Shown here piece by piece: positions 1-47,447 of a stretch of 47,447 bases of DNA. The notes under the pieces were generated by a model. The model did no database searches. It was not told the DNA's origin and saw only the letters and a list, made by a program, of their open reading frames with translations. A program made the position numbers and the translations under genes. Position 1 is the first letter of the stretch, and every line of letters starts with the position of its first letter. Source of the stretch: Nemertoderma westbladi (taxonomy: Eukaryota; Animalia; Xenacoelomorpha); the NCBI GenBank assembly GCA_032718475.1, contig JAUCBJ010006749.1, forward strand, positions 1-47,447. Direction: 5' to 3'.

Positions 1-637
1 CGGCAATCCGTTCAGACCTAATAACAGCCAGACAACTATCCAGCCTACAAATTATCTAAATAAAATTATACGCTACCCGTACAGACTTACACAAACAAAG
101 TACAGACTAAACGATGGCAGACCACTCTCAAGCCTAAATAAACCACAGGACATGCAGACTCCGAAATGATTAGGGAGTATGCGCTCTAACCCAGTAGTGC
201 GACTTATTCTTTAGTTGGGGGATTACCTTACCGCATTGGCTGCCCCTACTTCCTAACCGTACTTAATCGGACAAGTGCTCTACACACACTGTAATCCGTT
301 CAGACTTAACAGCAATCAGACAACAGCTCAGCCTACAAATTGTCTGTACAATCTGATCAGGTTTACACGCCTTCTGTTCAATACTGGCCTACAAACAAAT
401 AAAACTTGACAGAAATAAGTAAAATCTCAATAAAAACCAGGGCTGCAGTCCCTGATTAATTATTAAGGCCTACTGGTATATAATAATCAAAATCGAATAA
501 TACTAGTGTACTTATACTGAAGTACCGGTTAGAACAGTTAGGCCTACTGACCTACAGAGTGTACCGGTTCAGGTTTACCGGTTGACCGGTACTTTCAACT
601 TTATTGCTTACTGCAACAAAGAAGCTATATCCTTTAA
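1..637 (-). mobile_element. 5' internal (leader) region of the LTR element whose 5' LTR is 638-1867; runs out of the window
   Basis: Directly follows the LTR end on the minus strand. Its TTGCAGTAAGCAATAAAGTTG resembles TTGCAGTAGGCAATAAGGTTG downstream of the LTR at 46061-47282. Contains a ~50-bp imperfect direct repeat (6-57 vs 293-346). Confidence 0.65.
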
Positions 638-1867
638 TGTTCTCGCTTTCAGACCTTTGGCAGTTTAACCCACCAAATCAAGATGTCTTCTAGATATTAA
701 ATCTGCTTTTAGTCTATGACAAATATTTGATTCACTACACTAGTCGAAACCAATCCGTGCGCGACCATTCACCCGCTGGATATTCCCGGGAGATTGGGTT
801 CGACGGTTTAATTTTATTGCTATGTAAGCCTAATGTATTATTCGACTGACAGTATTATATAATCTCTGACAATATTATTCACCTTCGGTAATATTAACAG
901 TTCCTTTAGGACGTGGCGCTTTATCTATATAAACAGAGTTATGACTTAAACTACTCACAACGATATGGCTTAATTATAATTCACATATATGGCGCATTCT
1001 TTAGGAATTGCTTCTTTAACAGACTCACTCATACACAATGCTGCACAATACTGCACACTAATCTGCCAATCTTCACTGATTTTAGTCACATATAAAAGGA
1101 ACACAGGCTGACTCATGTAGGGTCTATCAAATAACATTAGATTCACTTCAAACCACTTTAACATAAGTCACAATCGTTATTGGTAACCTTTCTCTCTTAC
1201 CTTCGGTATATCAAGAATATTGGGTTGCGGGGTTATTTATCGTTATTCCAAATATAATAATTCATCAACCATATTATGAAGAACTGACAGTAAATAGCAG
1301 TATAAACAACAACTGAACAGTTAGGTATATCGGTACATCAGTACCGGTATGTCAGCATTGAGATATTTACAGAGATATTCAAGTAGTCCGTTAAAGGATA
1401 TATGCCCTTTATAATTAAACCTACTAGTGTAAGACTAAAAGCAGTACAGCACAAAATACTTCCAAGCCGTTCTTTCTTTGGCTCAAGTCTGAATGTAAAC
1501 ACTGCACATAGGCATTGCGTCATTTCTCGGAAATTTTCTGTACAAGGAGCCACAAAAACGCTCTCATTGGCTGACTGAACTGAGAGACGCCGTAGAACAA
1601 AGGAAATCAACACGTATGAATGTCAGCTGTTAACCGTAGTCATAGTAACTACTGTTCAAGAGTAGCTATCACCCCTTTGCGTCACGAATTGCCATAGAAT
1701 CATAAAATATGCCTTTCACAGTACACATACGGAGGAAATAGGTCTTAGATCCTCTAAAAACACCGATACAGCAATAATACGGTCTCTTACACTTATTAAA
1801 TCAACTACAGAGTATTTTAATGTAAAAGATAATAAAATAACGGGGCAATTCAGCAAAGGCTTTTACA
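638..1867 (-). mobile_element. LTR copy A (5' LTR, 1230 bp) of the TGTAAAAG...AACA family, inserted into the gag of the BEL element
   Basis: Minus strand starts TGTAAAAGCCTTTG and ends GAAAGCGAGAACA. Has CCAATGAGAGCG and CAGCTG motifs and the 30-nt block GCGCCACGTCCTAAAGGAACTGTTAATATT (890-919) shared with copies B, C and D. No TSD; abuts the BEL reading frame at 1868. Confidence 0.85.
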
Positions 1868-4800
1868 CCCGAAGAAAAAACAAGTGTACACAATGTTACT
1901 CAGAGTAAGGTGAGTAACATCAAACCGAAATGTGCGCTATGTGATGGGACCCATCGCTTAAATATGTGTGATGAATTTCTAAAGAAATCATTAACTGAGA
2001 GACGTGAAGTCATGTGGGATAAGCGGTTGTGTTATAATTGCCTCAGACATGGACACCAACGGCGAACCTGTTACTCTGACACAAGATGTGCCAAGTGCGG
2101 TGCGAAACATCATATCTTGTTGCACACTGAATTCGAGCGAAATAGTCCGAGTCAGGTAAGTGATTCCGAACTACATGTCCAATTCAGTGATGTGAACGAC
2201 ACTGATCAATCTGAGATGGAAGGATTCTATACGGACGAGTTCTCCGACGAAAACGAATCCTGTTACACGATAAATACCACAGTGTATCGAGCACTCACGT
2301 ATGAAAGAGATACGGACAGCGACCTTACCCTAACTACTTCTGATCAACAACCATTTTGGAAAGCGCCAACTTCCAATGTAGGGATTAGAGAATTTCCTGT
2401 GGTACAGGTAAGGGTCCACGGACCAAAAAGGAGTTATGTAGTGAACGCCCTCCTTGACTCCGGTAGTACAGGAACATTCATCGACAAAGAGCTAGCCGAA
2501 GACATATTCGATGGACAACCCAAGTTCCGAACTAAGCTAAACATGTCAGGAATTATGCAAGTTTGGAAATCCACAGTAACAGCGGATTATTATGTAGGTG
2601 TGTTGTCCACCCCCCAGGACGAACTAGGAGAACGTAGCATAAGGTCAGTGAAAATGGTGGCTATAAAGAATTTCACTACTACTCAAGCAGACCTTTATAA
2701 TTGGGACGAGGATGAGAGCATCCAACATCTTAAGATACCTCGATTCCAGACAGATTATCCTGGAGTGCAAATACTCATCGGTCAAAATGCGCATGAAGCG
2801 CTCGAGACATTGGAGAAACGACCTGCTCAACCGCAACCTCTACAAGTTTATGCGGGAAGAACTAGAGTAGGTTGGTACTTTACTGGCCCTTCCCGTAGAA
2901 CTCTCATGGAAAGATTACCGAAAGATCAGGTATATCAAGCGCGAGAATGGGAAGTTGAGAACAGTGAGTTCGACGATCCAACTGAGGGAACTCCATACTC
3001 CTCAGACAACGACGATATACATCAACTTTTTGATGAGGAGAATGCCATCGATCTCCTTAAGGAAAGCGAGACTTGGCAAAATCAAGTGAACTTATGTCAA
3101 CTTCTTCTCCCATCCGAGCGAGACGACTATAACGACGAGCTTAATGACGTCATTGAACGTTATAATGCCAAGACTCGGGATGAACACGCCGTAAGATTCT
3201 TTACTCAAGAGGTTGTAGAGCCCAACTCCTACGATAAGGCCCTATCGGTGGAGGAAGAAAGAGCCAAGCAGATCCAAGCGACAACTACTCGTTTTCTTAA
3301 AGATCAAGGTAGGTATGAGATCGGACTTCCTTTCCGAAAGCGAGAACCGAAGTTCATTAACAACAGACCTTTGGCGGAGAAAAGAATTGCGCAACTACAT
3401 CGACGCCTTACGGCAAATTCTTCAGCTAAAGAAATGTATCAAACACAGTTGAAGAAGTTTATTAGCAAGGGATATGCGGAGCTAGTACCAGAAGAAACAC
3501 CCATAACTGAGAGAACGTATTATTTAACTCACCATTACGTTCCCAAACCCGGTAAACCCCATGAAGTACGAGTGGTGTTCGACGGCTCCGCCCTCTATAT
3601 GGGCCAATCCCTTAATTCTGAAATGTTACCCGGACCCAACTTACTCCAATCCTTGTTGGGAATATTATTAAGGTTAAGACAATACTCCATTGCTTTCGCC
3701 TCAGATATAGAAGGCATGTTCTTACAAGTCAAAGCGCTGGATAGGGATCGAGATAGTCTACGATTTTTGTGGTGGCCTGAAGGAGACCTCAATAAGAAAC
3801 CTGTGGAGTACTGGATGACCATCCAAGCTTTTGGGATAATCTCGAGCCCTTCAAACGCCTGTTCCGTGGTGCGCACCACTGCGGATGACAACCGAGACGC
3901 CTTCTCTAAAGAAGTGATTGACAATATCAAACGAGACATCTACATGGACGATAATCTGAAGTCCCTTCCATCAGTCGAAGAAGCCATTGAGGTCGCTAAA
4001 GGAACGGTAGAATGCTTAAAAAAGGGTGGATTTCGATTAACTAAATTCACTAGCAACTCCCGTGAGTTTCTGGAGTCGATCCCGGTAGAAGATCGGGGAG
4101 CAAAAGACCTAGATCTAATAAAAGATGATCTCCCAGAAACTAAGACCCTTGGTTTGAAATGGGACACAGAAAGAGATATCCTGTTTTTCCAATTAAAACA
4201 GCGAGATAATCCAGTTCGGACTAAACGGATTTGTTTAAGTATCCTGAGCACTTATTTCGATCCATTGGGATTTATTAGCCCAGTTATATTGATTGCTCGG
4301 AGTTTAGTACAACAAATGTGGCTTGAAAACCACTCATGGGACGATCCACTTAAGGGAGAATTATTAAAGAAGTGGATGAAATGGGAAGATTCTCTACCAG
4401 CCATCGAAAACTTCATAATTTCCCGTTCATATTTTGGTCATGTTCTCCCTACGTATTCATATCAACTCCATGTGTTTGGAGACGCCAGCGATATGGGAAT
4501 CGGTATAGTAGCCTACCTAAGGGTGGAAACTCCGGACGGAATTAAAGTCGCCTTGGTTACCTCTAAGGCATTAATAAACAACAAGTTGAAAGTTCCTCGA
4601 GCGGAGTTAAAAGCGGCTCTATACGCTACAGCCATCGGCCGGAATGTAACAGAACAGATCGACTATCCCCTGGAGAAAACTGTCTACTGGACCGACGCTT
4701 TACTCGTGTTGGAGTATATAACCAATGAAGTCTGTCAGTTCAGCGTCTTCGTTACCAACAGAGTAGCTATTATACTCAGTCGCACGACGATGGATCAATG

Positions 4801-6826
4801 GAGACATTGCCCCGGAACGATTAATCCAGCAGACATCGCTTCCAGGGGAGCAACTCCACAAGAACTGGTAGATACTCCAGACTGGTTAGGTGGACCCGAC
4901 TTCCTCTACCAAGAAGAAGAAGAATGGCCTCCTCATCTTACTACAGCAGAAATTAGACAGGCCAAGGGAGCGGAGAAAGTCAAACCTAAAACTCAGGCGA
5001 GTAAATCGAAGTTATTCAAACCCACAGTAGATCTGTCTGTACTACATACTTCCGGAGACGACGCTTTGGATCAGAAACCCACAGCCACAAATAAACCCAT
5101 TGTGGAAATCCGTGATAAGGATTGGAAATCTGGCATACCAGACGTCTCGCAAGGACTCTCACCTCTTCTGCAGAGAGCGATACATCACTACAGTTCCTGG
5201 AATCGGCTTTGTAAGGCCGTTACATATTTAAAGAGATGTTTTCACCATCACTACTCTGGGATGAAAACAAAGGGTGATACCGCTCCAATCACATCAGTGC
5301 AGGTCCATGTTATTAAAGACATCCCTAAATATAAGGTACCCGACAAGTTTCTGAAGGAGAAGATCAGTTATCAGGAGCATGAAGAAACCAACAAACAGAT
5401 GCTGAGACTCTTACAATGCTATGAAGATTCCGATAAGTATTTCCTGTTGTTGAGAAATCCACAGATGCGCTTAAGGGATCGTTTCTCTAGCACAATGATA
5501 GATGGGTTGATACGTGTTGGAGGAAGGTTAACGAATGCCCCATTATCCTTTGATACTAAGTTCCCCATACTCATTAGAAATCTTGAAATACAAGTCAAGA
5601 TGATTGTAGATGTTCACAGCAAACTTTATCATGCTGGTAGAGAACGAGTTCTTAGCGAAATTCGAACTCGCTATTATTTTTATAAACCCCGTAGAGCTCT
5701 GAACCAAGTTCTTAGGAACTGTATACCCTGTAGGAAAGCATTCAGTAGGCCTTTAACACAGAGAGAGGCAGAATTACCTAGGGAACGAGTAAGCTTTTAT
5801 GAACCACCCTTTACTAATACCGGTGTGGATTTATTTGGCCCTATTGAAGTATATCGTGCTAGGACTATAGTCAAGATATGGTGTGTAATCTTTGTTTGTA
5901 TGACTTGTAGAGCCATCCATCTCGATATGGTGAACGATTTATCTACCAACAGCTTTCTATTAAGCTTACGACGACAGATCGCTCGCTTTGGCACTAGTAA
6001 CACGATGAGATCTGATAAGGGAACAAACTTCATTGGTGCCAACAATGAAATCAAAGCTTACTTCAAAGATTGGAACCAAAGACAGGTGGACGACCAACTA
6101 CGAGTAACAGCGTCTAGTTGGACCTTCAACGCCGCCGACGCCCCTTGGTGGGGAGGAAGTTGGGAGAGATTAATAAGAAGCGTGAAGACAGCATTTCATT
6201 TTATAGTGCCTTGCCGCGCTTATCTCACCGACGAACTTTTGCGGACGTTAATGGAAGAAATCGCCGCCTATCTCAACGAGAGACCGCTTATGCCAGTCTC
6301 ATCGAGTCCCGATTCCCTGGAAGCGCTAACACCCGCGCACTTCCTACTGAAGAAACCTGTAGCCATGCTCCCACAATCGGAAATCACAGACGGAGACGAA
6401 TACTGCCGACAAACTTGGCAACTCATGCAGTTGTTATCCCGTCGTTTCGCCGACCATTTCGAAAAACATTATCTGCCCACGCTACAACTTCGAACTAAGT
6501 GGTTTGCGCAGCAAGAAAACGTCAGCGCTGGAGACATGGTGCTTATTGTGGATGTGGATCTTCCACGTAAGCGGTGGCAGACAGGTCGTATAATCGAGAC
6601 GCACGTCTCAGATGACGGTTTGGTGCGATCGGTAGAACTCGTCGTCATGCGACGTAACTTCAAGAAACCGGGAATTGTCTTCGAGACGCAGCAGCTCAAT
6701 CGCCCGGTGGGACGTTTATGTTTACTGGAAAGAGACAGAGAACTCTCCGGAAACTATGGGAGACAAGATACTCTTCCCACGACCACCTCCCTAATCCAAC
6801 AAACATCTAGGGACTCCCCAACTTAA
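1868..6826 (+). CDS. BEL/Pao LTR retrotransposon polyprotein (Gag zinc knuckles, protease, RT, RNase H, integrase), 5'-truncated by LTR A
   Basis: Three Cys/His knuckles (CALCDGTHRLNMC, CYNCLRHGHQRRTC, CAKCGAKHHILLH), protease LLDSGS, RT SDIEGMFLQV...LRFLWW...YMDDNLKS, RNase H LHVFGDAS...PRAELKAA...YWTD...NPADIASRG, and integrase H-H-C-C, GVDLFGP, SDKGTNF, WERLIRSVK with the BEL-type C-terminus (GDMVL...DGLVRSV...RPVGRLCLL). The frame is open from 1868; the GTG at 1910 is not a real start. Confidence 0.96.
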   Translation, partial: PEEKTSVHNVTQSKVSNIKPKCALCDGTHRLNMCDEFLKKSLTERREVMWDKRLCYNCLRHGHQRRTCYSDTRCAKCGAKHHILLHTEFERNSPSQVSDSELHVQFSDVNDTDQSEMEGFYTDEFSDENESCYTINTTVYRALTYERDTDSDLTLTTSDQQPFWKAPTSNVGIREFPVVQVRVHGPKRSYVVNALLDSGSTGTFIDKELAEDIFDGQPKFRTKLNMSGIMQVWKSTVTADYYVGVLSTPQDELGERSIRSVKMVAIKNFTTTQADLYNWDEDESIQHLKIPRFQTDYPGVQILIGQNAHEALETLEKRPAQPQPLQVYAGRTRVGWYFTGPSRRTLMERLPKDQVYQAREWEVENSEFDDPTEGTPYSSDNDDIHQLFDEENAIDLLKESETWQNQVNLCQLLLPSERDDYNDELNDVIERYNAKTRDEHAVRFFTQEVVEPNSYDKALSVEEERAKQIQATTTRFLKDQGRYEIGLPFRKREPKFINNRPLAEKRIAQLHRRLTANSSAKEMYQTQLKKFISKGYAELVPEETPITERTYYLTHHYVPKPGKPHEVRVVFDGSALYMGQSLNSEMLPGPNLLQSLLGILLRLRQYSIAFASDIEGMFLQVKALDRDRDSLRFLWWPEGDLNKKPVEYWMTIQAFGIISSPSNACSVVRTTADDNRDAFSKEVIDNIKRDIYMDDNLKSLPSVEEAIEVAKGTVECLKKGGFRLTKFTSNSREFLESIPVEDRGAKDLDLIKDDLPETKTLGLKWDTERDILFFQLKQRDNPVRTKRICLSILSTYFDPLGFISPVILIARSLVQQMWLENHSWDDPLKGELLKKWMKWEDSLPAIENFIISRSYFGHVLPTYSYQLHVFGDASDMGIGIVAYLRVETPDGIKVALVTSKALINNKLKVPRAELKAALYATAIGRNVTEQIDYPLEKTVYWTDALLVLEYITNEVCQFSVFVTNRVAIILSRTTMDQWRHCPGTINPADIASRGATPQELVDTPDWLGGPDFLYQEEEEWPPHLTTAEIRQAKGAEKVKPKTQASKSKLFKPTVDLSVLHTSGDDALDQKPTATNKPIVEIRDKDWKSGIPDVSQGLSPLLQRAIHHYSSWNRLCKAVTYLKRCFHHHYSGMKTKGDTAPITSVQVHVIKDIPKYKVPDKFLKEKISYQEHEETNKQMLRLLQCYEDSDKYFLLLRNPQMRLRDRFSSTMIDGLIRVGGRLTNAPLSFDTKFPILIRNLEIQVKMIVDVHSKLYHAGRERVLSEIRTRYYFYKPRRALNQVLRNCIPCRKAFSRPLTQREAELPRERVSFYEPPFTNTGVDLFGPIEVYRARTIVKIWCVIFVCMTCRAIHLDMVNDLSTNSFLLSLRRQIARFGTSNTMRSDKGTNFIGANNEIKAYFKDWNQRQVDDQLRVTASSWTFNAADAPWWGGSWERLIRSVKTAFHFIVPCRAYLTDELLRTLMEEIAAYLNERPLMPVSSSPDSLEALTPAHFLLKKPVAMLPQSEITDGDEYCRQTWQLMQLLSRRFADHFEKHYLPTLQLRTKWFAQQENVSAGDMVLIVDVDLPRKRWQTGRIIETHVSDDGLVRSVELVVMRRNFKKPGIVFETQQLNRPVGRLCLLERDRELSGNYGRQDTLPTTTSLIQQTSRDSPT

Positions 6827-6844
6827 AAATGGCTGGAGTGGGTG
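6827..6844 (+). promoter_or_regulatory. Polypurine-tract-like sequence after the BEL pol stop
   Basis: AAATGGCTGGAGTGGGTG lies between the stop codon and TGT, the usual BEL PPT position. Confidence 0.65.
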
Positions 6845-7256
6845 TGTGACCATATTATTTTATATTTGTATTTGTTTTATTTTTATATTTATGTATGTAT
6901 TATTATGTAATTTTATTTTAATCGTTTTATTTTATTTTATTTAGTAACATGTTATTTTAGTGATCATTTAGTAGATTAGTGCAATATATATTCGCGTTTA
7001 TAATTTAATTACGTATATTATATATTTAGTGCGACGGCGAGAAATAATTCTTTTTCTCTTTCCTTACTGCCCGTATTACATTATCAATACGTGACTACAG
7101 TAAGATGAAATCTTCGTACTTATTAAAGTACAATAAAGCCACTACTATATTCAAGTATTATTGGTAGGCAGAGTATTAGGAATGCAAAGTTCAGATCCTC
7201 GTGTCTCGGCTAAACCAAGCTCTGGGTAGACCTTGGAAACGACTTGCCTCTTCACA
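6845..7256 (+). mobile_element. Probable 3' LTR (412 bp) of the BEL element
   Basis: TGTGA...TCACA 5-bp inverted termini, preceded by a PPT-like tract, with AATAAA at 7132-7137. No second copy in the window confirms the right end. Confidence 0.55.
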
Positions 7257-7352
7257 CTGACATTGCTTCATGCGATATTGCTCTCATACCGTATATTAAA
7301 TAATACATATAGTAGCGTGATGTCCCTTTAACAGTAGCGTATAATGCAAAAT

Positions 7353-7683
7353 AAATCTGTTAAACCCTTTGACCATATGTAATTCTAGTCGATTAAGATA
7401 TCGCGGCACCCACCGATATACTTGAAAGACAAATTTCTAGAATCAATGGTTAACGTCTCCAGACAAGTTCTGGAATAAACTGGTGCCCATCCTAAATATT
7501 AATTATTAATATTTACAAAAATCTGTCAAATATCAGATCCTTTAAAATTCTAGTCGATTAAGATATCGTAGCACTTACCGATACTCTTAAAAGGACAAAA
7601 TTCCTAGAATCAAGGATCCCAGTCCCCAGACACGTTCTGGAATAAAATTGTGTCCATTTTAATATTAAATAATAAAATTTACG
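7353..7683 (+). repeat. Two ~165-bp tandem units, each a long hairpin
   Basis: AATTCTAGTCGATTAAGATATCG occurs at 7381 and 7546. Both units also share CTAGAATCAA and CCAGAC..GTTCTGGAATAAA. Confidence 0.85.
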
Positions 7684-8469
7684 GGAATAAATTTAAGTTC
7701 ATATATTTCAATGAATTTAATAAATTGTCATTTTATACAATTTATAACATTCCCAAAATTCCATTAATTAATAGATCATGGGAGCGGAGATTCACTCTAT
7801 TAAGTGTATTTGTGTGCGAGAATCTCCAATGTATAGTCAATAGCCGATAAAATTCATAGAATCATGTATAAAGGGGATATTGACCATTAAAGAATTACTA
7901 TTAAATAGCATCCCAGATCTGTATGCATGAGAATTACCCTAATTCTACCGCTAGCTTTCCATAATGTCACCATGGCAACAACCACGCTAGAATTAGAAGT
8001 GAGTTAAAAGAACAATAGAAAGCATGCCCCATTGAATAGCATAGGGAATAAATAGCGCACTGCTAGTATCCAAGGATACATAATAAATACAGTGACATTC
8101 TGGAAGGTACTGACTAACGGACAAATGGCCCGAATGTGTACAGTTTGTTGCAGTTGTGTTGAATTTGTGCGTTTGTAGGTGAATGTTACTACTAAGGTGT
8201 GTTTACAGTAGCGAGTCGCAATTGTGAAAGTAACCCTAACTCTCCAAGAAGAACCTGCAGTACATCTAAGCCTTTGGGACGGACAGTGAAGTGACTTGTG
8301 CCGGTTATCGTTGTCGTTGTGTAGCTACATCGTTGGCGAAAGCACAGCGACGACGGTACATCGGCGCTGAGGATCTTACACTGTCCGGGGGCAAAAGAGG
8401 GATAGGCAGCGACGCCCGCTAGCCTAATATATATAGACTCATTATAATATTGATAAACTCATAGCAGAT

Positions 8470-11400
8470 ATGACTGAGTTGATAGAAGATGATCTTGGCA
8501 TCAGGGAGCGATATACTCTACCTTTACAAGCGTTTGTCGATAGCTTGATACGCGGCGACGCTGGTCCAACTACTACGGAGGATGATGGTCGTTATATCGA
8601 ACCGCCGATGTCCCCGGAGCAACTTACGCGTGAATTGGACTATAGAAAGTTCACCGCTCGCTATACGCATCGTAATGGTACGTATATGGACTTCTTAACT
8701 ACCGGCCACCCTATCGATTTACACGATACGGACGATGTGGATACCGAAAGGGAAATGGTTTTATTTAAATATCATACCCAACGGAATCGGAACGATAAGC
8801 CAAGAATAGAACACGAGAACTCTATTCGAAACCGACTCGAAAGAGAAGACGTTGCAGAACCGGATAAACGCAACGACTTCAACGATTATCTGGAATTCTT
8901 GAGAGAAACATACCTCAATATTGCCAGTCAACAAAATCTCGAAACTCGATATCCTCAAGGTATACATCATGATCCTATGATAGAACTCAAACGACTCTAT
9001 TTCACTATGATGTATCTTACCGCCGATCGACCGCTACCTGTTGTCCCAGATAGCTTCGAACAGATGGAGGAATATTGTAAAACTGGAGAACGATCACCCG
9101 CGTTTCCTCTGCAAGACATGCGTCTTTGGTATTACTGTGACGAATGCCCTAGACCCAATCAGCAAACGGAAAGACATAAACATCCGCAGAGACGTTGCGC
9201 TAAACACAGTTTTACACGATATACTTACGGGAGTTTCGAGCAAAACCTGTTCGACGTGTCCCCGGCGGTCGCTCGACTCAAGCGATCCTTGAACAAACCG
9301 ATGATCAGAGTTCCGGAATACTCGGTCAGACCTCCGCATTCCTCAGTTAGACCTCAAACTCTTGACCCTAATAGTATCACGGATCCTCCCGAACTGTACT
9401 CACTGTTCAAAGATCTAGTGTTACCCGAACAGTTGATCGGTGGCACTCCGGTAGTAGGCTCACGAGACATTCGCCAACCCTACCTAGCTGGATTGGGACG
9501 TGGTCATCTAATATCGCCGTTTAACCCATACAACCGTCCCGGCTTCACCTCTATCCAACCCGTTACGGAAGTCGAAGAGAGCGTCGTACGAAACGCATTA
9601 GACGCTATTCGGCAGAAAATCGGAAAGGGAACGTACGATTGTTTGGAGAAGCGTAAATTGCAGCAACAAGTCCAAGCGGTGAAGGAATTAGCTTTACCCC
9701 AGTTCGATAGAGAAATACAAAATCTCGAGGAGGACATCGAACGTGGACGAACCTACTCTTTACAAGAGTTTCTAGATGAGCGTCTACAACAACAACCGGA
9801 GGAGAATCAGCTCGAGGAGAGACATATAGAACTGGATGAGAGAGAAGAAGCGGCTTTAGCTCAACCCGAAGCGCAAATCCTTATGACGGATCTCTACTCT
9901 AAAACCATTCTTCATCCCTCGATGGTTCCCCATTTCGGAGACAAACTTTTTGCGACGGCACAACCCCAACCGGTTGATATCAACCTAAGATCTCGCGATC
10001 TTATCGCAGACGCTCCTCTGTTGCAGCGTCCGCCCATCGAACCCGCTCGTGTCGATGGTATACTCGTTGAACCTCCGGACAATAGAGCAGATCTTGTCTG
10101 TCGCATGGTACACGATGTAAACATACGCGCTAGACCTTTACCGGACTCGTTTTATGGGATCAAAGATCACCCTTATTACGTCAATCTAAAACAATATTAC
10201 ATGGTAAAACCGGAAGATCCTACACATAGTCTGAAGTTTCTACCGTTAATAAATCCTCTCGATCTTGTCGAACTCGAACAACTGCAGAAACATCTGGATC
10301 AGTTAGTTAAAGTAAACTCGTTTCGAAAACCATATAATGTTTCCAGAATAGAGAAAGAAACAATACCTCCGTATAATCTTGATGGATTCATCAAAACTCG
10401 TTTAGTGCACTGGAATCTTGATGTGTTATTCGAGGAGGAAAGAATACAACGATATGGAGATGTGGAAACATATACCACACAATATTTAAAGTATAAAGAC
10501 CTGCCTAATGCTAGCGAATGTGCTACCTTGTGGCATCCTGTGGGAATGACACTCGAAAACGCCACTAAAGAGTGGAACGAAACTCTTAACGTTATCGAGA
10601 TGTATGGAGTTGTCACTTACGATAACGAAGGTAGCGTTCCGGTTGGAGAACTTGGAACTACGCGGATGATACATATACGAGGACTCGCTGGTTCTACCCA
10701 CGTATTTACTCGAGCGTGTTCCGACGTTATTGATTATTCTTTTGAAACTCTTACTGAGACACAAAAGAAACTCCGACATGGACAATTTGAACTCGCGCAG
10801 CGTTACGTCACCGACACCGAGCGCAAGCCGGCCATGGGTATCGATGGATCGATGTTACCCCAACCCGTGCTCGAGATGCTGTTTAACGAAGGAATCCTTA
10901 AAATCGGCTCAGCTGTTTATGGAGACCTACAGAACGACTTTCGGAATATGGAGAACATTCCATACCCCTTCGTTGATACTCAGCTGATTGCTCCTTGGGC
11001 AGAAGGCCGAGGTTTCTTCCGCACTATGTATGCCAATACACCCAGCGGAATTACCAAAGTACAACGAACCTCCATCGGACATCTTGCCTTTCAAGAATAC
11101 GGATGGAATTTCAAGGTTGGAAATCCTATAAATTACCAACAAGTATACGGAGATCACTATTCTCGTTTATACTTTGATGGACCATTGACCGCACCTGGCG
11201 CCGTGTATAGCTTTATGAGTGTTCCACTTCGTCCCTCCTTAGCTATATACACGATCTTTGAAAACGCAGCACTTGCCGGTTGGCTAGCCGATGTGTGCAG
11301 TCGTACTATACGCGCCCATCCCTTAATACTTGGAACCAAACTCGCCAAGTTAGATGAACACAATAAATTCATCCGCTTTGAATGTTTCAGGCGCTTTCTG

Positions 11401-12723
11401 ACTCCGTTCCGTAACGTTGATAGTCAGTTCAAGGACCGCGCTCTGACCAAACTCAGCCTGAGAGACTCAGCGGCGGAGAAGCTAAACAGCGCGGGATTTG
11501 CCCTTTTTCAGGACGTTTGTATACAGAACTTGCACTCATCTGTTATACAAAGACCCCGAATACCCACGGGTTATTCTGTCGTCGAAGTTCAGACAGTGGG
11601 TCCGCTTGCGGAGACAGCCGCACCTACCTCAGCTATGCAATTGGAAGACGAACCAATATGCTTAGAAGCTGAAGCGATTCAGCCTACAGCGCCCCGGAGC
11701 AGCGATAACGACTACGTCTTAGAGTGGTATCAAGGTCCACAATGTCTCACCGCATACGATTATCGACACGCTAACTATGTTTCTCGAAAACGTTGTCGAT
11801 TATGCGCATCGAGAGACCATTTCACTCCTATGGACTCAGACGTACCCTGTTCCTATTTCCACGAACAACCAATGATGGAGATATATTGTGCGTATTGCAG
11901 ACTTAATAACTCTCATATTTTTGCAGTCTGCCCCCAATTTATGACTCAATGCCACCACTGTCAACTTAAAGGACATGCCAGTTATAATTGCCCCTTTAAT
12001 CACGATATAGAGAGCGTAGATGAAATGATTACCCTGCGCTACATCCGAGCTTGGGAAGCTAACGCGGATTTACACTGTGAGTCCCGTCATCGATACTACC
12101 CTGGACGCTCTTACGAGGGAGTTTACGCGTTCCATCCTTATTTATTAGCGTCTGTGGAACAAAAAACACGCATACCGAGTTACGAGCTAATGAAGCGTGT
12201 TGGTGAGTGTATTTCCACTAAATTTGTTAGAAGATACCTTAGGAACGTCAATCCTAACGATATTACTTCATACCATTTGATCAATTATATCCGTCAAGAC
12301 CCTGAGTATGGCGATTTATTTATCAACTCGCACCCTGAGTTACAGGAAGTATCTCGACGGCCCTACGAATATCGAGCCCGAGAACGCGAGCTGGAAAGAA
12401 CTATTAAACCAAGGAAGTTTCTCACCACCCCCGGTCCGCCTACCGCCATTACCCAGACAACCCGTCAAGGACCCGTAGGAGCTGCTGTCCTGAGGCGCGC
12501 CCTAAAGGCTGTTAGACCTCGCTCCACGGAAGTTGATATCGATCAACCAGGTACCTCGACCGGCGGATACACCGATCGCAATCCGAAACCTTCTGATGCA
12601 ATTGTATTGCACCCTTCACCCAGGAGTTACAGCCCTCCTAGTAAAGTGGCTCGCCCCAAAGAGAAAAGGACTCTTGCTAGCCTCAAAAAACTGCGTAAAC
12701 GCCGTCCGCGTAAGAAAGACTAA
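8470..12723 (+). CDS. 1417-aa retroelement accessory protein: DEDDy (WRN/RNase D-like) 3'-5' exonuclease domain, CCHC zinc knuckles, basic tail
   Basis: Intact ATG-initiated ORF. ExoI-like VVTYDNEG (D at 10621), ExoII-like LPQPVLEMLFNEGILKIGSAVYGD (D at 10924), FVDTQLIA, SIGHLAFQEYGWNFK, and ExoIII-like PLRPSLAIYTIFE. Knuckles CRLCASRDH, CAYCRLNNSHIFAVC and CHHCQLKGHASYNC at 11794-11991. C-terminal KKLRKRRPRKKD. Domain call is by motif recognition only. Confidence 0.8.
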   Translation: MTELIEDDLGIRERYTLPLQAFVDSLIRGDAGPTTTEDDGRYIEPPMSPEQLTRELDYRKFTARYTHRNGTYMDFLTTGHPIDLHDTDDVDTEREMVLFKYHTQRNRNDKPRIEHENSIRNRLEREDVAEPDKRNDFNDYLEFLRETYLNIASQQNLETRYPQGIHHDPMIELKRLYFTMMYLTADRPLPVVPDSFEQMEEYCKTGERSPAFPLQDMRLWYYCDECPRPNQQTERHKHPQRRCAKHSFTRYTYGSFEQNLFDVSPAVARLKRSLNKPMIRVPEYSVRPPHSSVRPQTLDPNSITDPPELYSLFKDLVLPEQLIGGTPVVGSRDIRQPYLAGLGRGHLISPFNPYNRPGFTSIQPVTEVEESVVRNALDAIRQKIGKGTYDCLEKRKLQQQVQAVKELALPQFDREIQNLEEDIERGRTYSLQEFLDERLQQQPEENQLEERHIELDEREEAALAQPEAQILMTDLYSKTILHPSMVPHFGDKLFATAQPQPVDINLRSRDLIADAPLLQRPPIEPARVDGILVEPPDNRADLVCRMVHDVNIRARPLPDSFYGIKDHPYYVNLKQYYMVKPEDPTHSLKFLPLINPLDLVELEQLQKHLDQLVKVNSFRKPYNVSRIEKETIPPYNLDGFIKTRLVHWNLDVLFEEERIQRYGDVETYTTQYLKYKDLPNASECATLWHPVGMTLENATKEWNETLNVIEMYGVVTYDNEGSVPVGELGTTRMIHIRGLAGSTHVFTRACSDVIDYSFETLTETQKKLRHGQFELAQRYVTDTERKPAMGIDGSMLPQPVLEMLFNEGILKIGSAVYGDLQNDFRNMENIPYPFVDTQLIAPWAEGRGFFRTMYANTPSGITKVQRTSIGHLAFQEYGWNFKVGNPINYQQVYGDHYSRLYFDGPLTAPGAVYSFMSVPLRPSLAIYTIFENAALAGWLADVCSRTIRAHPLILGTKLAKLDEHNKFIRFECFRRFLTPFRNVDSQFKDRALTKLSLRDSAAEKLNSAGFALFQDVCIQNLHSSVIQRPRIPTGYSVVEVQTVGPLAETAAPTSAMQLEDEPICLEAEAIQPTAPRSSDNDYVLEWYQGPQCLTAYDYRHANYVSRKRCRLCASRDHFTPMDSDVPCSYFHEQPMMEIYCAYCRLNNSHIFAVCPQFMTQCHHCQLKGHASYNCPFNHDIESVDEMITLRYIRAWEANADLHCESRHRYYPGRSYEGVYAFHPYLLASVEQKTRIPSYELMKRVGECISTKFVRRYLRNVNPNDITSYHLINYIRQDPEYGDLFINSHPELQEVSRRPYEYRARERELERTIKPRKFLTTPGPPTAITQTTRQGPVGAAVLRRALKAVRPRSTEVDIDQPGTSTGGYTDRNPKPSDAIVLHPSPRSYSPPSKVARPKEKRTLASLKKLRKRRPRKKD

Positions 12724-12801
12724 CTGTTTAGAGTATTTTTATATTTTAGAAACTGTGATTTGTTATATTTTATAGACTTAAATCCCATTTTCTGGGAGCG
12801 G

Positions 12802-13946
12802 TGTAAAAGCTTTTGCGTAATTAACCGGTTATTTTCCCTTAAAGTACGCTGTAGTTGGTTTGCCAGGCATAAAAAGGCCGTGTCCTTGCTGTACTGGTGT
12901 TTTAGAGGACATAAAAGTCATTTCTTCTGTATTTGTACTTTAGAGGACATAATCCGCAATCTCGTGACGCGATAAGCTAGATACTCTTGAAAACAGTGTC
13001 GCTACCATGACGACGGCTAACAGCTGATATTGCCACGTCGACATTTCTTTGTTTCTTTGTTCTCTCGTTGTTCGGTTGACCAATCAGAGCGTTTTTTGAC
13101 TCTGTGTTGGATTTGGATACAGAAACTCAGTAGTTCAGTGTTATGTTTTGCCCAGAGCCTAAGAACACCGGCTTTTGGCACCTCCGTATATCAGCATTAT
13201 TTAGCTTTACATTAGTAGGCTTAATTATAGAACGTATATCTGTTATCAAACCATAACTAAACATATCATACATATCTTACTTAACATTACTGCTTTTACT
13301 GTCGGTTATTCATTATATTTGTTGATGAAATATTATATCGGAACACTGATCAATAGTCAGACACCCCACCTTCTTGATATACTAAAGGTTAGAGAGACCG
13401 GTTACAGATAAACGATTGCGACCTATGTTAAGTGGTTTGAAGTGAATCTAATGCTATTTCATATGCCCGACATAAATTGTATGTTGCTCTCTTTATACGT
13501 GACCAAATTTAGTGAAGGTCGGCAGATTAGTGTGCAGTATTGTGCAGCATTGTGTATGATTGTAACTGATAACAAAGCATCTCCTAAAGAATGCGCCATA
13601 TACGTGAATCTATAGCCTTTTCGTTGTGTCTGGTTTAAGTCATAACTCTGTTTACATATTTAGAGCGCCACGTCCTAAAGGAACTGTTAATATTTCCCGA
13701 AAGTGAATAATATTTGTCAGAGATTATATATTACGATCAGTCGAATAATACAGTAGGCTTACACCATTAATCATTAAGCTCCGAACTCAGTCTCCCGGGT
13801 ATATCCAGCGGGTGAATGATTGCGCATAGACTGGCTTCGGCTAATGTAGTGTATCAAATACTCGTCATAAGCTAAAGAATATATATCATCCAAAAGACAT
13901 CCTAATTTAGCAGGTTAAACTGTCAAAGGTCTTAAAAGCGCAAACA
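12802..13946 (+). mobile_element. LTR copy B (3' LTR, 1145 bp), preceded by PPT-like TGGGAGCGG
   Basis: TGTAAAAGCTTTTG...AAAAGCGCAAACA, with CCAATCAGAGCG and the invariant 30-mer at 13665-13694. Starts 78 bp after the 1417-aa ORF stop. Flanks AGCGG/GTAAT are not a TSD, so it is not a solo LTR. Confidence 0.85.
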
Positions 13947-14041
13947 GTAATCCACACCTATCGTTAGCCAGCTCCGTTACAAACTTGGGCCAGACATCCA
14001 GTGATCCTGTATGCCTACCAGTACCAGTTCTAGGAGTAGCC

Positions 14042-14476
14042 TTATTCTCGGCGCGCGTATTGAGCATCGTTATCAACACGAAGAGCTACGTTAGAAATGG
14101 AAGTTGAGTTCTTAGCACAAGCACTCCGTACCTCTTCAGTAAAGTTTGCGGGGTCGAAGGAAGACAAAAAATCCTTTGTCATCTCTTCAAATTTCCTTTG
14201 CAGAAAGTTCGATAATTCCCGACCGAATTTATCCAGGCTAGCTTCGATGATACTAGATATATCAGAGGTACCGGTATTACCCGGATTAAAGGTAGGAACA
14301 CCGTCCTCCGGCCCCTGTGTACTGTGAAACACGTCCTCCAAGTCAGGTGGATTGACCATCTCAGTTGGAGCCAAGTGCGCGGGGCTGGCACCAAAGCGTT
14401 TTGGGGCTGGTGAGTGAACGGAGGAAGACGAAGTTGATGCCTTAGATACCTCGCTAAGGTTTCTCTTATTATCCAT
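14042..14476 (-). pseudogene. Non-LTR retrotransposon ORF1 N-terminal fragment (CR1/L2/L1-type)
   Basis: MDNKRNLSEVS...SPAPKR, then a helical segment ending RVDNDAQYARRE, like the LEQYSRR(E/N) motif of LINE ORF1 proteins. Truncated at that point. Confidence 0.55.
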
Positions 14477-14754
14477 ACAAAAAAGACCAAATGAAGGTGA
14501 GAAGGTTGTTGAAAAAAATGGGGATTGTAATATCTTCATCTAATTACCGTAGTTTACAGGTTTAGGCACAACTTTAGCCATTCCCTATGGTAAGTCATAT
14601 ACCAGATTTCAAAACGCAGTAAATCGTAAATGTCATGTCCAGATGTCCAAGATTCCCCAGTATGCCGGTAACTGTCACATGACAGGCCTACCTAACCAAC
14701 TGTCAGATTTCAGGATTAGCCTACCACAGGAGTAGTCATCCTGCACAGGGGATT

Positions 14755-16600
14755 AAATGAACGAAAGAAATGAGTGAGCGCAAAGAGCGGGACGTGAGGG
14801 AGGCAGCGAGGGTTGAGAGAGAAGAGAATGAGCGCAAAGAGTGAGAAGCGAGGAAAGCTGAGAGGATTGAGAGAGAGGTAAATGAGCGCAAAGAACGAGA
14901 GACGAGGGAGGCAGAGTTAGCCGATCAGAGCGTTAGAGAGGACAGAGAGAGAGAGAGAGGGGGTGGGTAAAAGAATGAGGGATGATATGCACGCCCGGTT
15001 GAGGGGGTTGATGCAGTTAGAACTGGCGAAACTGGGTTTATCAGAGAGCGAAGCTGGTTCGGGAAGTATTTATGAGGAACCATGGGTGATGGAAACTTTT
15101 GTGAATACCTCACTTACAGGTACCGGACGAAAAACACAAAATAAAATAAAATACACAAAATAAAATGGGCACCCCACCGCAACCAGTTAGAGACGAGAGA
15201 GATGGGCAATAAGTGGCCCACAGACGTCGGTTGGAAATACACACATGGAGTTAAGTGAACCGAGGCTTCCAACGACAGGGGAAAGGGGGGGCAACAGATG
15301 CCCCACAGACTTTGGTGGAAAATGCGCGCGCATGGTGAGCTAATTGGACCGGGGCTCCCAACGATGGAGGAGAGAAGAAGGGCAATGAATATCTGCGAGG
15401 CCATACAACTGGGAAGGGGAAGGAGCGTTGGTGCCATAAGCAGCCAAATGAGAGAACATCGAGCCCGCTCAGAAGATGGAAGGAGAATGGAATGGTTCAT
15501 CTGGGAGGTCGATACGAGACATCATGAAGGTGGATATAACACCATAAGTGGAGGATGCGAGGGTGATGGTAGGGGTAAGCGAGGAAATGTTGCTACGAGC
15601 AACCAGAGATGTCGAGATAGGATGGACAGCGAACCATCAATAGTTGAAGTAGAGAGAGAGGGCTGGTGGGGTTGTACTTTGGGAGATTGCCGTCGCCCCG
15701 GAGAAACACAGCCTGGTGATATATATTACACACCGGGAGAGGGGTATAGAGTGTACCAGGATGATGAGTATGAGAGAAGAATAGATCAAAGGGAAACTTC
15801 CCGTCTGAACATAGCTGCCAATCAACAATATGGTAGTAGCGGGGAGGAGTTCTTGGAATATTCGAGAAGACTAAACTTTGGTCCGGAGGACCACATTCAG
15901 ACTGCAGAACATACTGTAGGTCTTACTGCACATACCATAGGCCATGCTGGGAGAGATAGTGTAGGTGTTTGGGTAACGCGAATGCCGGGATTGGAACTGG
16001 AGGTCGAGGCTTACATACCGGTGAGTAGGCAGGAACCTGCTAGGCCTATACCGGTACCTGCACACCAGTATGACTATAATATGGAGGGATATAACATATA
16101 CCCAGGGGAAGGGGGGGGGGGGGGGGTATTACAGATAAGTGTATGTGTCCCAATATAATTACATCTACCCCAGTACAGAATATAACAGGGTGGGGGGGGG
16201 GGTGTAATATACTGTATCTACAATACACTCAGCCAAATAAAATAACATTTGCAACACCCTCAGATCCAAATAACTCATGTGATACCGAGATATGGAGGGG
16301 ACCATTACCCCAGATGATATATCCTACACAGGGAAAGTCAATGACCAGAGATGTGAAGCACAATCAACACCACGGGAGCCTGCATCCGTACCGTCGAGCG
16401 CGCTGGAAATTCAAGCGATAGAAATGGCAACACTCATCGACGCGCTAAAAACTAGAATTGAGGTGCCACCCATGGAGCCTTTTAAGATTGATGGTAGCAA
16501 GCCAGAAGAATATCTACAATTCCAGAGGATGTATAGTAACAAGATTCTCACGAAGAATCTCACACAGGCGGAGTGCTTTAATTACCTACAAGTCTATAGA
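14755..16600 (+). pseudogene. Decayed BEL/Pao gag fragment (E/R-rich repeats, then DUF1759-like start)
   Basis: From 16424, IEVPPMEPFKIDGSKPEEYLQFQRMY...NLTQAECFNYLQVY matches the BEL gag pattern (LPK..F.G....W..F.......LS..EK.NYL..Y). Upstream purine-rich ~55-bp GAGCGCAAAGA repeats and ORF 15298-16158 are on the same strand, broken by stops and poly-G runs. The 5' extent is uncertain. Confidence 0.6.
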
Positions 16601-17100
16601 GGGGGGCCAGCCAAAATATCGTATTATCCAACCAAATTCGCTTTTTGCAATTTGAAATGTTTGCTACTTATAATTTTCGTCCTACCAGACAAGCACCAAA
16701 ATTGACAGTTGCGTTACCACGAATGATTTGTAACGTGTTGTATCGTGATCAGCGACCTTGAAAACCAGTATAGCTTCAGAATTACCAAACCAAAGGCATA
16801 ATTTGACAGTTTATAAGTTTGTGCTACTTGTAATTTTCGTTCTGGGGCTCTAGAATAGCACCAAAATTGGGTTTGCATTACCAGAAATATTTACAACTAG
16901 TTTCATCGTAATCAGCGACCTCGTAAACACGTACGTTCAGAATTATCAAACCAAACTCAGTTTGAAAATCAGTTTGAATTTCGCTCTAATAAAACCCAAT
17001 AACGACCAATAAACCAATGAAAACAGTCGATTTTAAGAGCCAAACTTTAAACGCGTTTTTCTAAGAATGAACATTTTTTTCCCCAGGTCCCTTTTCTCGC
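16600..17100. mobile_element. DNA transposon-like fragment truncating the gag
   Basis: Abrupt change of sequence character and an internal ~170-bp duplication containing ATCAGCGACCT..AAAC. A related motif is on the minus strand near 30800. Superfamily not assignable. Confidence 0.35.
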
Positions 17101-40820: not shown

Positions 40821-41030
40821 GTATATATTACATATATATAAAAAATGCTGTGCCGGCTTGTCGACAAAATTTGCGCCGCCACAACTCCCTATCACCCATA
40901 ACATTTGCTAGATCATCCGCATCTTCAAGGCCGGTGTACTTTAAGATGCGTCTCAAGAAAGCCATGGGCTGTCCACCATGCATATACTCCATGAGGCCCC
41001 CAAAGCACAAGATTATGCACTGGCCGGTCC

Positions 41031-43250: not shown

Positions 43251-44455
43251 TGTAAAAGCTTTTGTGGGATAACTGATTCGTTTGCCTTGCTGGCCAGTTC
43301 CCCCCCGGTCGCTAGAATACTCTAAAAGGGATCTATAGCTAAAATAGTGCAAGCTACCAGCTTATTGGTTGATGTGCTGTACGAAGGTATCTGGGCTCCG
43401 TTTACTCGGCCAACCAGCTTAGGGAGGTTGCCTCAGCCTTGCTGTCCGTATCGGCCAATAGAATTTGAGTGGGCGTTGATTTTGACCTATCCCAGAGCTA
43501 CTGAACTGAATTTCCTATCTCTATGCTCATCCTCTGTGTTGGACGGGAGCTTCGGGGAATAAGGGTAGTTGGTATCCTCGTATAGTCAGGTAGTCATATG
43601 ATTCTTCATATGATTCTGTTGTTGTGTTCCCATTTTCGCCAGACCACCGGCTTTTGGGAAGAACTCTAGTAAAACTGCTTAAATTATCGAAAGTATAACT
43701 GTTATCTAATCAGCTAATCAACCAACCAACTAGTCTCACTCACTTAATTTAACTGCACTAATCATATTGTTTGTACTGTTATTTACCGTCAGTTATTAAT
43801 TGTATCTATTTGTTGATGAATTATTGCCCTTTGGAGAATACGGATAAATCACCCAAAATTCCCAATTTTCTTGATACACTACAGGTTAGAGAGACAGGCT
43901 ATACATAACAATTGCGATTTATATTAATGTGGTGTGTATTGAATCTAATGTTATTTAACAGACCCTACATGAGTCAATTGCTGCTCTCTTTATGTGTGAT
44001 CAAATTTACTGACGGTCGGCAGAATAGTGTGCATGATTGTGATTGGTAACAAAGCATTTCCTAAAGAATGCGCCTTATACTTTAATCATAAGCAGTATCG
44101 TTGCGTTTAGTATAAGTCCTAGCTCTGTTTAAATAGATAGAGCGCCACGTCCTAAAGGAACTGTTAATATTTCCCGAAAGCCAATAATATCTGTCAGAAA
44201 TTAATTATTAACGATCTATCGAATAATACAGTAGTTTTACACTGCAACCTTACACTGCAATAATACAATTTAAGCATCCGAATTCAGCCTCCCGGGTGTA
44301 GATCCATCGGGTGAATGATCGCGCATGGGCTGGCTTCGGCTAATGTTTTGTTTATTAGCATAAAATATTGTCGTATGCTAAAGGTGTTTTAATTAACTAA
44401 AAGACATATAAATTTTGGCAGGTTAAACTGCTAAAGGTCTTCAAAAGCGCGAACA
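43251..44455 (+). mobile_element. LTR copy C: solo LTR (1205 bp) defining the family boundaries
   Basis: TGCCT|TGTAAAAGCTTTTG...AAAAGCGCGAACA|TGCCT: exact 5-bp TSD and TG...CA termini. Invariant 30-mer at 44142-44171. Confidence 0.92.
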
Positions 44456-46060: not shown

Positions 46061-47282
46061 TGTAAAAGCTTTTGTGGGATAACTGATACGTTTGCCTTTG
46101 CTGGCCAGTTCCCCCCCAGGCGCTGGAATACTCTAAAAAAGGTTTTCTAACTGTATATATATTCCCCTCGCCCGCAAGGTACCTTTACAGGGGTTTTAAC
46201 GGACATAAAAGTAATTCTGCTATATACGTGTTTTAGCGGACATGGTAAGACAAAAAACTTGTAATGCACCAACCACCTTTCACAGCTTAGCCGTGATGAT
46301 TCATATTACGACATCTAGCAGCTGGTTGCTGACATGGAAACAGCCATTGGCCGCGTGGTTCTTTGTTTGGCTTGGGCCAATCAGGGCGGTTTTTCCTGTC
46401 GACGTGTAGCTTTTTAGTCGATCATAAGGAGAGTGTTCAGTCTTACTGTTTTTTCTTGATACTTTGTTGTTATTGCTGTCTAAGCCAGAAACACCGGCAT
46501 TTTTGGATAGATACTGCTGTACCGTAAACTGCTTGAATTATCGAAAGTATAAACTGTTACCGAATCGAATATCACCTAACTCATTAATCATATTGTTTGT
46601 ACTGTTATTTTACCGTCAGTTATTAATTGTAAATATTTGTTGATGGAAATATCGCTATTTGGATAATACGGATAAATCACCCAATTCCCAATTTTCTTGA
46701 TAACACTACAGGTTAGAGAGACCGGCTATACATAACAATTGCGATTTATATTAATGTGGTGTGTATTGAATCCAATGTTATTTAGCAGACCCTACGTGAG
46801 TCAATTACTGCTCTCTTTATGTGTGATCAAATGTACTGACTGTCGGCAGAATAGTGTGTATGATTGTGATTGGTAACAAAGTATTTCCTAAAGAATACGT
46901 TTTATACTTTAATCATAAGCAGTATCGTTGCGTTTAGTATAAGTCTTAGTTCTGTTTAAATAGATAAAGCGCCACGTCCTAAAGGAACTGTTAATATTTC
47001 CCGAAAGCCAATAATATCTGTCAGAGATTAATTATTAACGATCTATCGAATAATACATTAGGTATACACTGCAACCTTACACTGTAATAATACAATTCAA
47101 GCATCCGAATTCAGTCTCCCGGGTGTAGATCCATCGGGTGAATGATCGCGCATGGGCTGACTTCGGCTAATGTTTTGCGTATTAGCATAAATTATTGTCG
47201 TATGCTAAAGTGGTTTTAATTAACGAAAAGACATATAAATTTTGGCAGGTTAAACTGCTAAAGGTCTTCGAAAGCGCGAACA
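46061..47282 (+). mobile_element. LTR copy D (5' LTR, 1222 bp)
   Basis: TGTAAAAGCTTTTG...GAAAGCGCGAACA; closest to copy C; invariant 30-mer at 46969-46998. No TSD; followed by a leader similar to that after copy A. Confidence 0.9.
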
Positions 47283-47447
47283 GTAACAGTTTATCTTGTA
47301 TTGCAGTGTAAGTATTAAATACAGTTTAATACTGTTCTGTCGAACAGTAACAGTTTATAAATCTTATTGCAGTAGGCAATAAGGTTGCAAGTGTAGGCAT
47401 TAAATACAGTTTAATACTGTTCTGACGAACAGTAACAGTTTAAAATC
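47283..47447 (+). mobile_element. Start of the internal leader after LTR D, with repeated U5-end/primer-site units
   Basis: CGAACAGTAACAGTTTA at 47277, 47341 and 47426; TAAATACAGTTTAATACTGTTCTG twice. Confidence 0.75.

Follow-up and report, generated by a model that had tools for sequence, protein, structure and literature searches.

Known exonuclease genes of retroelements and the locus under study

Open reading frames (ORFs) coding for DEDDy-type exonucleases have been described in bdelloid rotifers, where they occur as ORF3 in the long terminal repeat (LTR) retrotransposons Juno and Vesta and in the Athena/Terminon elements (PMC5408684, accessible text). According to that text, these ORF3s are typically spliced and carry DEED motifs; their activity was untested, their variation looked mostly neutral, and their benefit to the element was left open. 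Here, such a gene is described from Nemertoderma westbladi (Xenacoelomorpha). The whole stretch analysed, called the window, comprises 47,447 nucleotides (nt) of contig JAUCBJ010006749.1 (assembly GCA_032718475.1, positions 1 to 47,447, forward strand). It contains a BEL/Pao element with a third gene, ORF3 (8470..12723, + strand; 1417 residues, ATG to TAA), which lies 3' of pol in the env position and encodes a predicted DEDDy-type 3'-5' exonuclease domain. ORF3s of this kind are known already from the rotifers; the BEL/Pao host, the size of the protein, the fusion to zinc knuckles, the DEDE motif, the strong selection and the apparently self-primed LTRs are new.

Like the ORF3s of Juno, Vesta and Athena, the gene is a predicted RNase D-like DEDDy ORF downstream of pol, without a transmembrane segment and with one Asp changed to Glu. 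Unlike them, it has a BEL/Pao rather than a gypsy-like host, and Glu replaces the fourth of its acidic residues (DEDE versus DEED). The protein also differs in having 1417 residues, about 700 of them unrecognised, and three C-terminal knuckles; the proteins were compared by description, not by sequence. In contrast to the mostly neutral variation described for the rotifer genes, the copies here are under strong purifying selection. For nematodes, an RNase D-like domain may have been reported earlier from Cer elements. The sequence-only reading that preceded this analysis had named rotifers and nematodes as precedents. The rotifer precedent holds (PMC5408684), whereas no nematode case was found in the accessible text of that paper or in the literature searched. 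The accessible texts of PMC6431247, PMC5718144 and PMC6338049 repeat the rotifer precedent only.

The Belpaoviridae are described as tRNA-primed elements of 4.2-10 kb with an 18-nt primer-binding site (PBS) and an optional env-like gene (PMC8742986). The element in the window resembles members with a third gene, such as Tas and Cer7 (PMC8742986; PMC554778, accessible text). It shares the order of gag knuckle, protease, reverse transcriptase (RT), RNase H and integrase, the Peptidase_A17 and DUF5641 domains, the place of the third gene between pol and the polypurine tract (PPT), an LTR of ~1.2 kb and a PPT of ~10 nt. It differs in that the third gene is not an envelope, in its length (>12 kb between the cut gag and the end of the LTR, beyond the range described), and in the 12-nt self-complementary PBS of the family LTRs. 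As far as their accessible texts go, PMC3118150 and PMC554778 mention env and no exonuclease, and PMC6317226 and PMC3601003 place self-priming in the gypsy and copia lineages. In the literature searched, neither an exonuclease gene nor self-priming was found for BEL/Pao; most subscription papers, supplements and Repbase lay outside it, so neither can be taken as unpublished. With this locus, exonuclease ORF3s are found in BEL/Pao as well, and in association with apparently self-primed LTRs in a group described as tRNA-primed.

ORF3 and its host element

The element upstream of ORF3, which the sequence-only reading had left unclassified, is assigned to BEL/Pao by its Pfam domains. The 3' end of gag (last knuckle) and pol occupy 1868..6826 (+), the 5' part of gag being missing, and the frame is open over 1841-6826 on the same strand as ORF3. 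The product contains protease, RT (YMDD), RNase H/Peptidase_A17, integrase and DUF5641 regions, with Pfam matches to Peptidase_A17 (E=4e-36), DUF5641 (E=2e-19) and an integrase zinc finger; RNase H-like acidic motifs are retained. ORF3 begins 1.64 kb further on, after an AT-rich spacer (6827..8469, +), and a candidate branch point and splice acceptor lie upstream of it at 8192-8208 (acceptor at 8208).

The intact ORF of about 4.25 kb reported from the sequence was confirmed; the frame has no internal stop over 1417 codons. The 78 bp given earlier as its distance to the PPT is the distance from the stop to the LTR. The stop is 69 nt from the PPT-like tract (12793..12801, +); 12801 is the end of this tract and 12723 that of the ORF. 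The tract has about the 10 nt expected for BEL/Pao and stands directly before the 3' LTR (12802..13946, +; TGT...ACA, 1145 nt).

The maximum 19-residue Kyte-Doolittle mean of ORF3 is 1.19, so the protein is without a membrane segment, as had been claimed; its N-terminus is acidic. An envelope function was ruled out by the absence of a hydrophobic segment. The N-terminal ~700 residues are unrecognised, and contain a Cys/His cluster (aa 223-246) and a charged, probably coiled region (~380-480). The ESM Atlas gave no usable match for aa 40-330, and Rad4 BHD1 (E=0.08-0.11) and DUF6076 (E=0.08) were dropped as weak Pfam/NCBIfam matches for the N-terminal 700 residues. The C-terminal part contains three Cys/His knuckles (11794..11991, +): CX2CX4HX9C at 11794-11850, CX2CX5HX4C at 11887-11931 and CX2CX4HX4C at 11950-11991. 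The three knuckles claimed earlier are present, but canonical CCHC spacing is confined to the third; the top Pfam knuckle match (E=0.004) is below the cut-off. A basic tail resembling a nuclear localization signal (NLS) ends the protein (12682..12720, +).

A second exact copy of the PPT 9-mer lies in the spacer at 7779-7787 (0.008 expected by composition). It may be a central PPT, and it ends a tandem duplication spaced by 166 nt (7353-7615 / 7519-7781). A purine-rich run followed by TGT at 6832-6846, after the pol stop, might mark the point at which ORF3 and the LTR were gained.

Repetition, linkage and selection

Of seven sequencing runs, five contained the stretch, and contigs of four of these (X1, X3, X4 and X5) were mapped to the window; the depths given are summed contig depths, not copy numbers. 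X5 may be an RNA run, but this is a guess and does not count as evidence of expression. In X1, the depth was 123,000-1,210,000 in all 24 bins of 1-14016, versus 125 in the next bin, and the same contrast at 14016 was found in X3, X4 and X5. Therefore, ORF3, pol, the spacer and the LTR are all highly repeated. With a depth roughly thousandfold above that of the adjacent DNA, ORF3 is a multi-copy sequence and not a single-copy host gene.

Contigs fitting up to 12812-12816 entered LTR starts of the copy-1 type (six in X1, four in X3) and of the copy-3/4 type (two in X4), among the 24 of 4293 loose ends listed; the LTR copies are described below. Because only 11-15 LTR letters precede 12812-12816, these contigs include the PPT side, and the 3' end of ORF3 appears to be joined to several LTR subfamilies. 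The linkage of ORF3 to the LTR family, proposed from the sequence, was thus supported. Forms with internal deletions were also found (8838>11643, 9831>12589 and 4980>6697, among 15 of 204 joints listed). In X4, the derivative without 8839-11642 had a depth of 2918, versus ~450-1400 for the exonuclease region. The form with the 8838-11643 deletion is the deepest ORF3-region form in this run, suggesting an amplified non-autonomous subfamily.

Selection was examined between copies. Of the 162 differences in 10580-11290, the 40 with the best support were listed, and 36 of these are synonymous, versus 23-30% expected (p<1e-14). Each was scored singly against the codon of this copy, a single codon accounts for two of them, and they do not sample the 162 at random. 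The rough omega is 0.03-0.05, and no indel reaches a 5% share. Among the listed differences, the codon of the ExoII Asp varies silently only. In a wider listing (40 of 3798 rows, of which row 1903 before the pol ATG and 11 non-coding rows were left out), 7/12 differences in ORF3 and 12/16 in pol are synonymous. The N-terminal 700 residues have 6/8 synonymous listed differences; therefore, this part is constrained too. The exonuclease region of ORF3 is under strong purifying selection, as strong as that on pol. Such a bias, together with an intact frame of 1417 codons, is not due to chance. Because the family is very abundant and ORF3 is selected no less strongly than pol, the gene matters to the element, and there is little doubt that it is an accessory gene of the LTR family.

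Two flanking direct LTRs were not found for the copy in the window, which describes this copy and not the family. The 3' LTR has no direct-repeat partner 5' of the element; the nearest copy (copy 1, 638..1867, - strand) is inverted and 71% alike. Because this inverted LTR cuts gag, the window holds no 5' LTR of the element. Copy 1 itself probably represents the 5' LTR of a different member of the family, which continues beyond the left end of the window. Contigs covering place 1903 stop after no more than 33-36 letters, a distance that points to 1867; in X5, a contig from the LTR at 638-1867 has 19 letters not fitting at the LTR start. The gag/LTR junction is therefore probably particular to this locus.

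Predicted exonuclease domain and its relative P0001

The predicted DEDDy-type 3'-5' exonuclease domain lies at 10567..11304 (+; aa ~700-945), with D718/E720 as ExoI, D819 as ExoII and Y927/E931 as ExoIII. The motifs follow in the order TYDNEG (716), EMLFNEGILKIG (802), VDTQ (835), SIGHLA (868) and YTIFE (927); all the motifs quoted in the sequence-only reading are present as claimed. In ExoIII, E931 stands in place of the usual Asp. The domain resembles the cellular PF01612 enzymes RNase D, WRN-exo/EXD2, Mut-7/Nibbler, EXD1 and Egalitarian in the D-x-E of its putative ExoI, the ExoII Asp, the DTQ word and the P-L-x6-Y-x3-acid spacing of ExoIII. Unlike them, it scores below the curated cut-offs, has the ExoIII Glu, is fused to knuckles and is encoded by a mobile element.

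A search with ORF3 aa 1-1090 against 1.84 billion representatives identified one relative, P0001 (648 aa, E=1.6e-4), a singleton from a 9449-bp ENA contig, which matches aa 778-944. The pairwise comparison gave E=3e-13, and E=4e-5 for the knuckles. P0001 carries the D-x-E, the ExoII Asp, the DTQ word, the Y-x3-E, three knuckles and a basic tail; its three knuckles were found though the knuckles lay outside the search query. The two proteins are ~30% identical, with all four acidic positions and the Tyr kept in both, including the Glu at ExoIII. The P-L-x6-Y-x3-E spacing of P0001 equals that of Y151/D155 in E. coli RNase D (read from its gene). Local scores of both ORF3 and P0001 against E. coli RNase D exceeded all 300 shuffles. 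P0001 matches PF01612 weakly (E=0.2), and its knuckles resemble retroviral nucleocapsid (E=1e-4). In the ESM Atlas, 25/30 neighbours of ORF3 aa 660-1030 belong to PF01612 clusters (best 0.92).

Further relatives were searched for. No protein at E<=1e-3 was found for ORF3 aa 640-1250 among 7987 word-index candidates, and no ORF3 relative at E<=1 among 1256 shorter proteins in the same type of search. The word-index search with P0001 (1350 candidates) recovered itself alone. Metagenome contigs held no locus related to ORF3, viral contigs no relative of pol, P0001 or the two-sequence alignment, and tblastn against plasmids and phages gave nothing better than noise (E>=4).

Several results weigh against the exonuclease assignment and its link to pol. 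The domain has no significant Pfam, NCBIfam, PHROGs or PDB match. The PF01612 profile comparison proposed from the sequence gave no Pfam exonuclease match at E<=1. RNase D HMMs (hidden Markov models) match aa 798-843 weakly (E=0.015 and 0.036, far below the cut-off), and a phage exonuclease family in PHROGs not significantly (E=0.28). The PDB sequence search with the domain alone found nothing; with a two-sequence profile of ORF3 and P0001, RNase D was found at E=1.1, ranked below an ankyrin chance match. The highest-scoring Atlas cluster (0.93) has no name, 4-10% of shuffled proteins reach a score of 0.9, and 163 Atlas features are shared versus 170 typical of true family matches. Two AlphaFold models were of low confidence, with predicted local distance difference test (pLDDT) values of 30.3 and 28.8. 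A three-way alignment placed the ExoI of RNase D at ORF3 aa ~748 and not at D718; D718/E720 were taken as ExoI because ORF3 matches P0001 around predicted strands one to three. The Glu for Asp in ExoIII means that activity may be lost. Finally, no listed contig spans pol and ORF3 together, so their link rests on the single copy and the unbroken depth.

The earlier claim of a DEDDy exonuclease therefore stands in part: a DEDDy-like domain with knuckles in the env position is supported, while a DnaQ fold was not obtained by structure (pLDDT ~30). The fold is not shown, because no HMM match is significant and both AlphaFold models are unusable. Taken together, the Atlas neighbours, the weak RNase D HMM matches and the likeness to P0001 make it very probable that residues ~700-945 adopt a DEDDy-type 3'-5' exonuclease fold. 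Nuclease activity is somewhat favoured over its loss.

LTR family and putative 12-nt self-primer

The LTR at 12802-13946 (copy 2) has four further copies in the window, which are 67-78% alike. Besides copy 1, these include copy 3 (46061..47282, +) and copy 4 (43251..44455, +), a solo LTR with a 5-bp target-site duplication; no such duplication was found at the other three full copies. A DNA-transposon origin of the repeat was rejected, as there is no terminal inverted repeat beyond TGT/ACA, a PPT precedes one copy, and PBS-like sites follow two.

Copies 1 and 3 are directly followed by a 12-nt exact complement of a homologous site within the LTR (LTR positions 466 and 489). The PBS of copy 1 (626..637, -) is complementary to 1391-1402, and that of copy 3 (47283..47294, +) to 46549-46560. 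The two sites differ at 7/12 places, so they covary; the 12-bp self-primer duplex to which the sequence-only reading alludes is real. The duplex energies are -11.6 and -12.6 kcal/mol, and the chance of such a complement is ~7e-5 per LTR copy. The LTR site sits at the boundary between a variable 5' part, 48-64% alike among the copies, and a conserved 3' part (67-90%). The self-complementary PBS is present in 2/4 full copies; the remaining two, a 3' LTR and a solo LTR, would not be expected to have one. The PBS of the ORF3-bearing element itself is missing from the window.

A comparison of the entire left flank found no significant homology between the leaders after copies 1 and 3 (score 52 versus a shuffle maximum of 53). 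When the query was shortened and the scoring tightened, 25/29 nt were identical, above all 500 shuffles, which is a result for a chosen segment. The leader after copy 3 (47283-47447) repeats the LTR end and PBS in tandem.

The LTR family therefore looks self-primed, with the geometry of Tf1. As in the self-primed elements Tf1/Sushi, Tcn1 and TAR, a PBS of 11-12 nt directly follows the LTR and is complementary to a site in it (PMC7175516 and PMC6317226, accessible texts). Unlike the family described here, those elements belong to Ty3/gypsy or Ty1/copia, the same texts mention no exonuclease gene for them, and Tf1 frees its primer by RNase H.

Possible role of the ORF3 protein

Among the DEDDy proteins, Mut-7, Nibbler and EXD1 belong to small-RNA pathways. 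The reading preferred here, and held tentatively, is that ORF3 encodes an RNA-binding, RNase D/WRN-like 3'-5' exonuclease of a BEL/Pao element, which would act in trans against silencing or surveillance. ORF3 may be expressed from a spliced subgenomic RNA through the candidate acceptor at 8208. The knuckles would bind single-stranded RNA, and the basic tail would carry the protein to the nucleus. The exonuclease might trim or degrade RNA 3' ends, of small RNAs or their precursors, and by acting in trans it would shield the element from RNA surveillance or from silencing by host small RNAs. A role in anti-silencing or surveillance, rather than in a replication step, is plausible though short of probable. 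It was favoured because both homologues have NLS-like tails, the RNase H motifs in pol could free the primer, and derivatives lacking the domain are abundant in X4. Mut-7, EXD1 and Maelstrom are named in the context of DEDDy ORF3s in the accessible text of PMC5408684. A broader reading seems unlikely as a whole: a BEL/Pao lineage in which a 12-nt RNA self-primer has taken the place of tRNA priming, and in which strong selection keeps a giant protein with exonuclease and knuckles. This protein would define a new DEDE subfamily and, as a transposon-encoded counterpart of Nibbler/Mut-7, make the primer 3' end or disarm host PIWI-interacting RNAs (piRNAs). In either case, ORF3 is a concrete protein for testing RNA trimming or anti-silencing.

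Alternatively, ORF3 may be a replication helper, which we consider rather unlikely. Once the RNA loop had been cut, its exonuclease would shorten the 3' overhang as far as the 12-bp self-primer duplex, or it would clear other primer or complementary DNA ends, with the knuckles as nucleocapsid-like annealing chaperones. The covarying complements after copies 1 and 3, the contigs joining the PPT side of ORF3 to copy-1-type and copy-3/4-type LTR starts, and the nucleocapsid likeness of the P0001 knuckles (E=1e-4) all agree with such a role. Exonucleases that halt at duplexes are also common in the DEDDy fold. However, the 12-nt site of copy 3 overlaps a TATA-like word. A basic tail of nuclear type suits work in a cytoplasmic particle less well. 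The Tf1 self-primer is made by RNase H (PMC7175516, accessible text), and pol here keeps RNase H-like motifs. For the self-primed Tf1/Sushi, Tcn1 and TAR elements, the accessible texts of PMC6317226 and PMC7175516 mention no exonuclease.

The domain could also be a pseudo-nuclease with little or no catalytic activity, as in EXD1 or Egalitarian. It would then bind the RNA of the element, either serving as an adaptor in transport or packaging or diverting silencing factors as a decoy. The ExoIII Glu of ORF3 and P0001 agrees with this, as do a ~30-residue insertion in ORF3 after the third strand relative to P0001, and the long unrecognised N-terminal region with its probable coiled segment. Inactive DEDD derivatives that keep RNA binding are noted in the accessible text of PMC5408684. 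The conservation of four acidic positions and the Tyr between proteins only ~30% identical argues against it. The rotifer ORF3s also exchange one Asp for Glu (DEED), and their invariant residues are called intact in the same text. A pseudo-nuclease is judged unlikely, and an active exonuclease is preferred.

It is improbable that ORF3, the PPT and the LTR form a separate self-primed element, possibly non-autonomous or gypsy-like, with the BEL/Pao pol a mere neighbour or joined by recombination. The purine run and TGT at ~6832-6846 after the pol stop do look like a BEL PPT-LTR start, the Belpaoviridae are described as tRNA-primed (PMC8742986), and the window has no 5' LTR of the ORF3 copy. None of 9 BEL pol loci in metagenomes holds an ORF3 relative (0/9), most of these loci ending near pol. 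However, the spacer contains no LTR-family sequence, and no further copy of its start occurs anywhere in the window. The depth is high over 6425-8760 in all four runs and collapses only after 14016. Contigs on the gag side end at 1867, so the foreign junction is the inverted LTR and not the spacer; the solo LTR with its 5-bp duplication likewise speaks against this explanation.

A captured or domesticated host gene without a role for the element is hardly credible: the Atlas neighbours are cellular eukaryotic exonuclease clusters, but ORF3 has no introns, is repeated ~thousandfold over the adjacent DNA, has internal deletion derivatives and a PPT-LTR junction, and is under selection as strong as pol (12/16 listed pol differences synonymous).

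Other features of the window

A decayed BEL-like gag region with charged repeats lies at 14760-16705 (DUF1759, E=0.12 at 16292-16702), and belongs to a less abundant family. The sequence at 14042-14539 (-) is presumably a fragment of ORF1 of another retroelement. An ORF at 19839-20603 (-) has a GIY-YIG-like motif, which we take to be like that of Penelope-like elements. Inverted-repeat elements, similar to miniature inverted-repeat transposable elements or foldback elements, are present at 41028-42504, 17811-17944 / 19093-19209 and 22020-22838; they contain internal tandem arrays of 15-17 nt or long palindromic arms.

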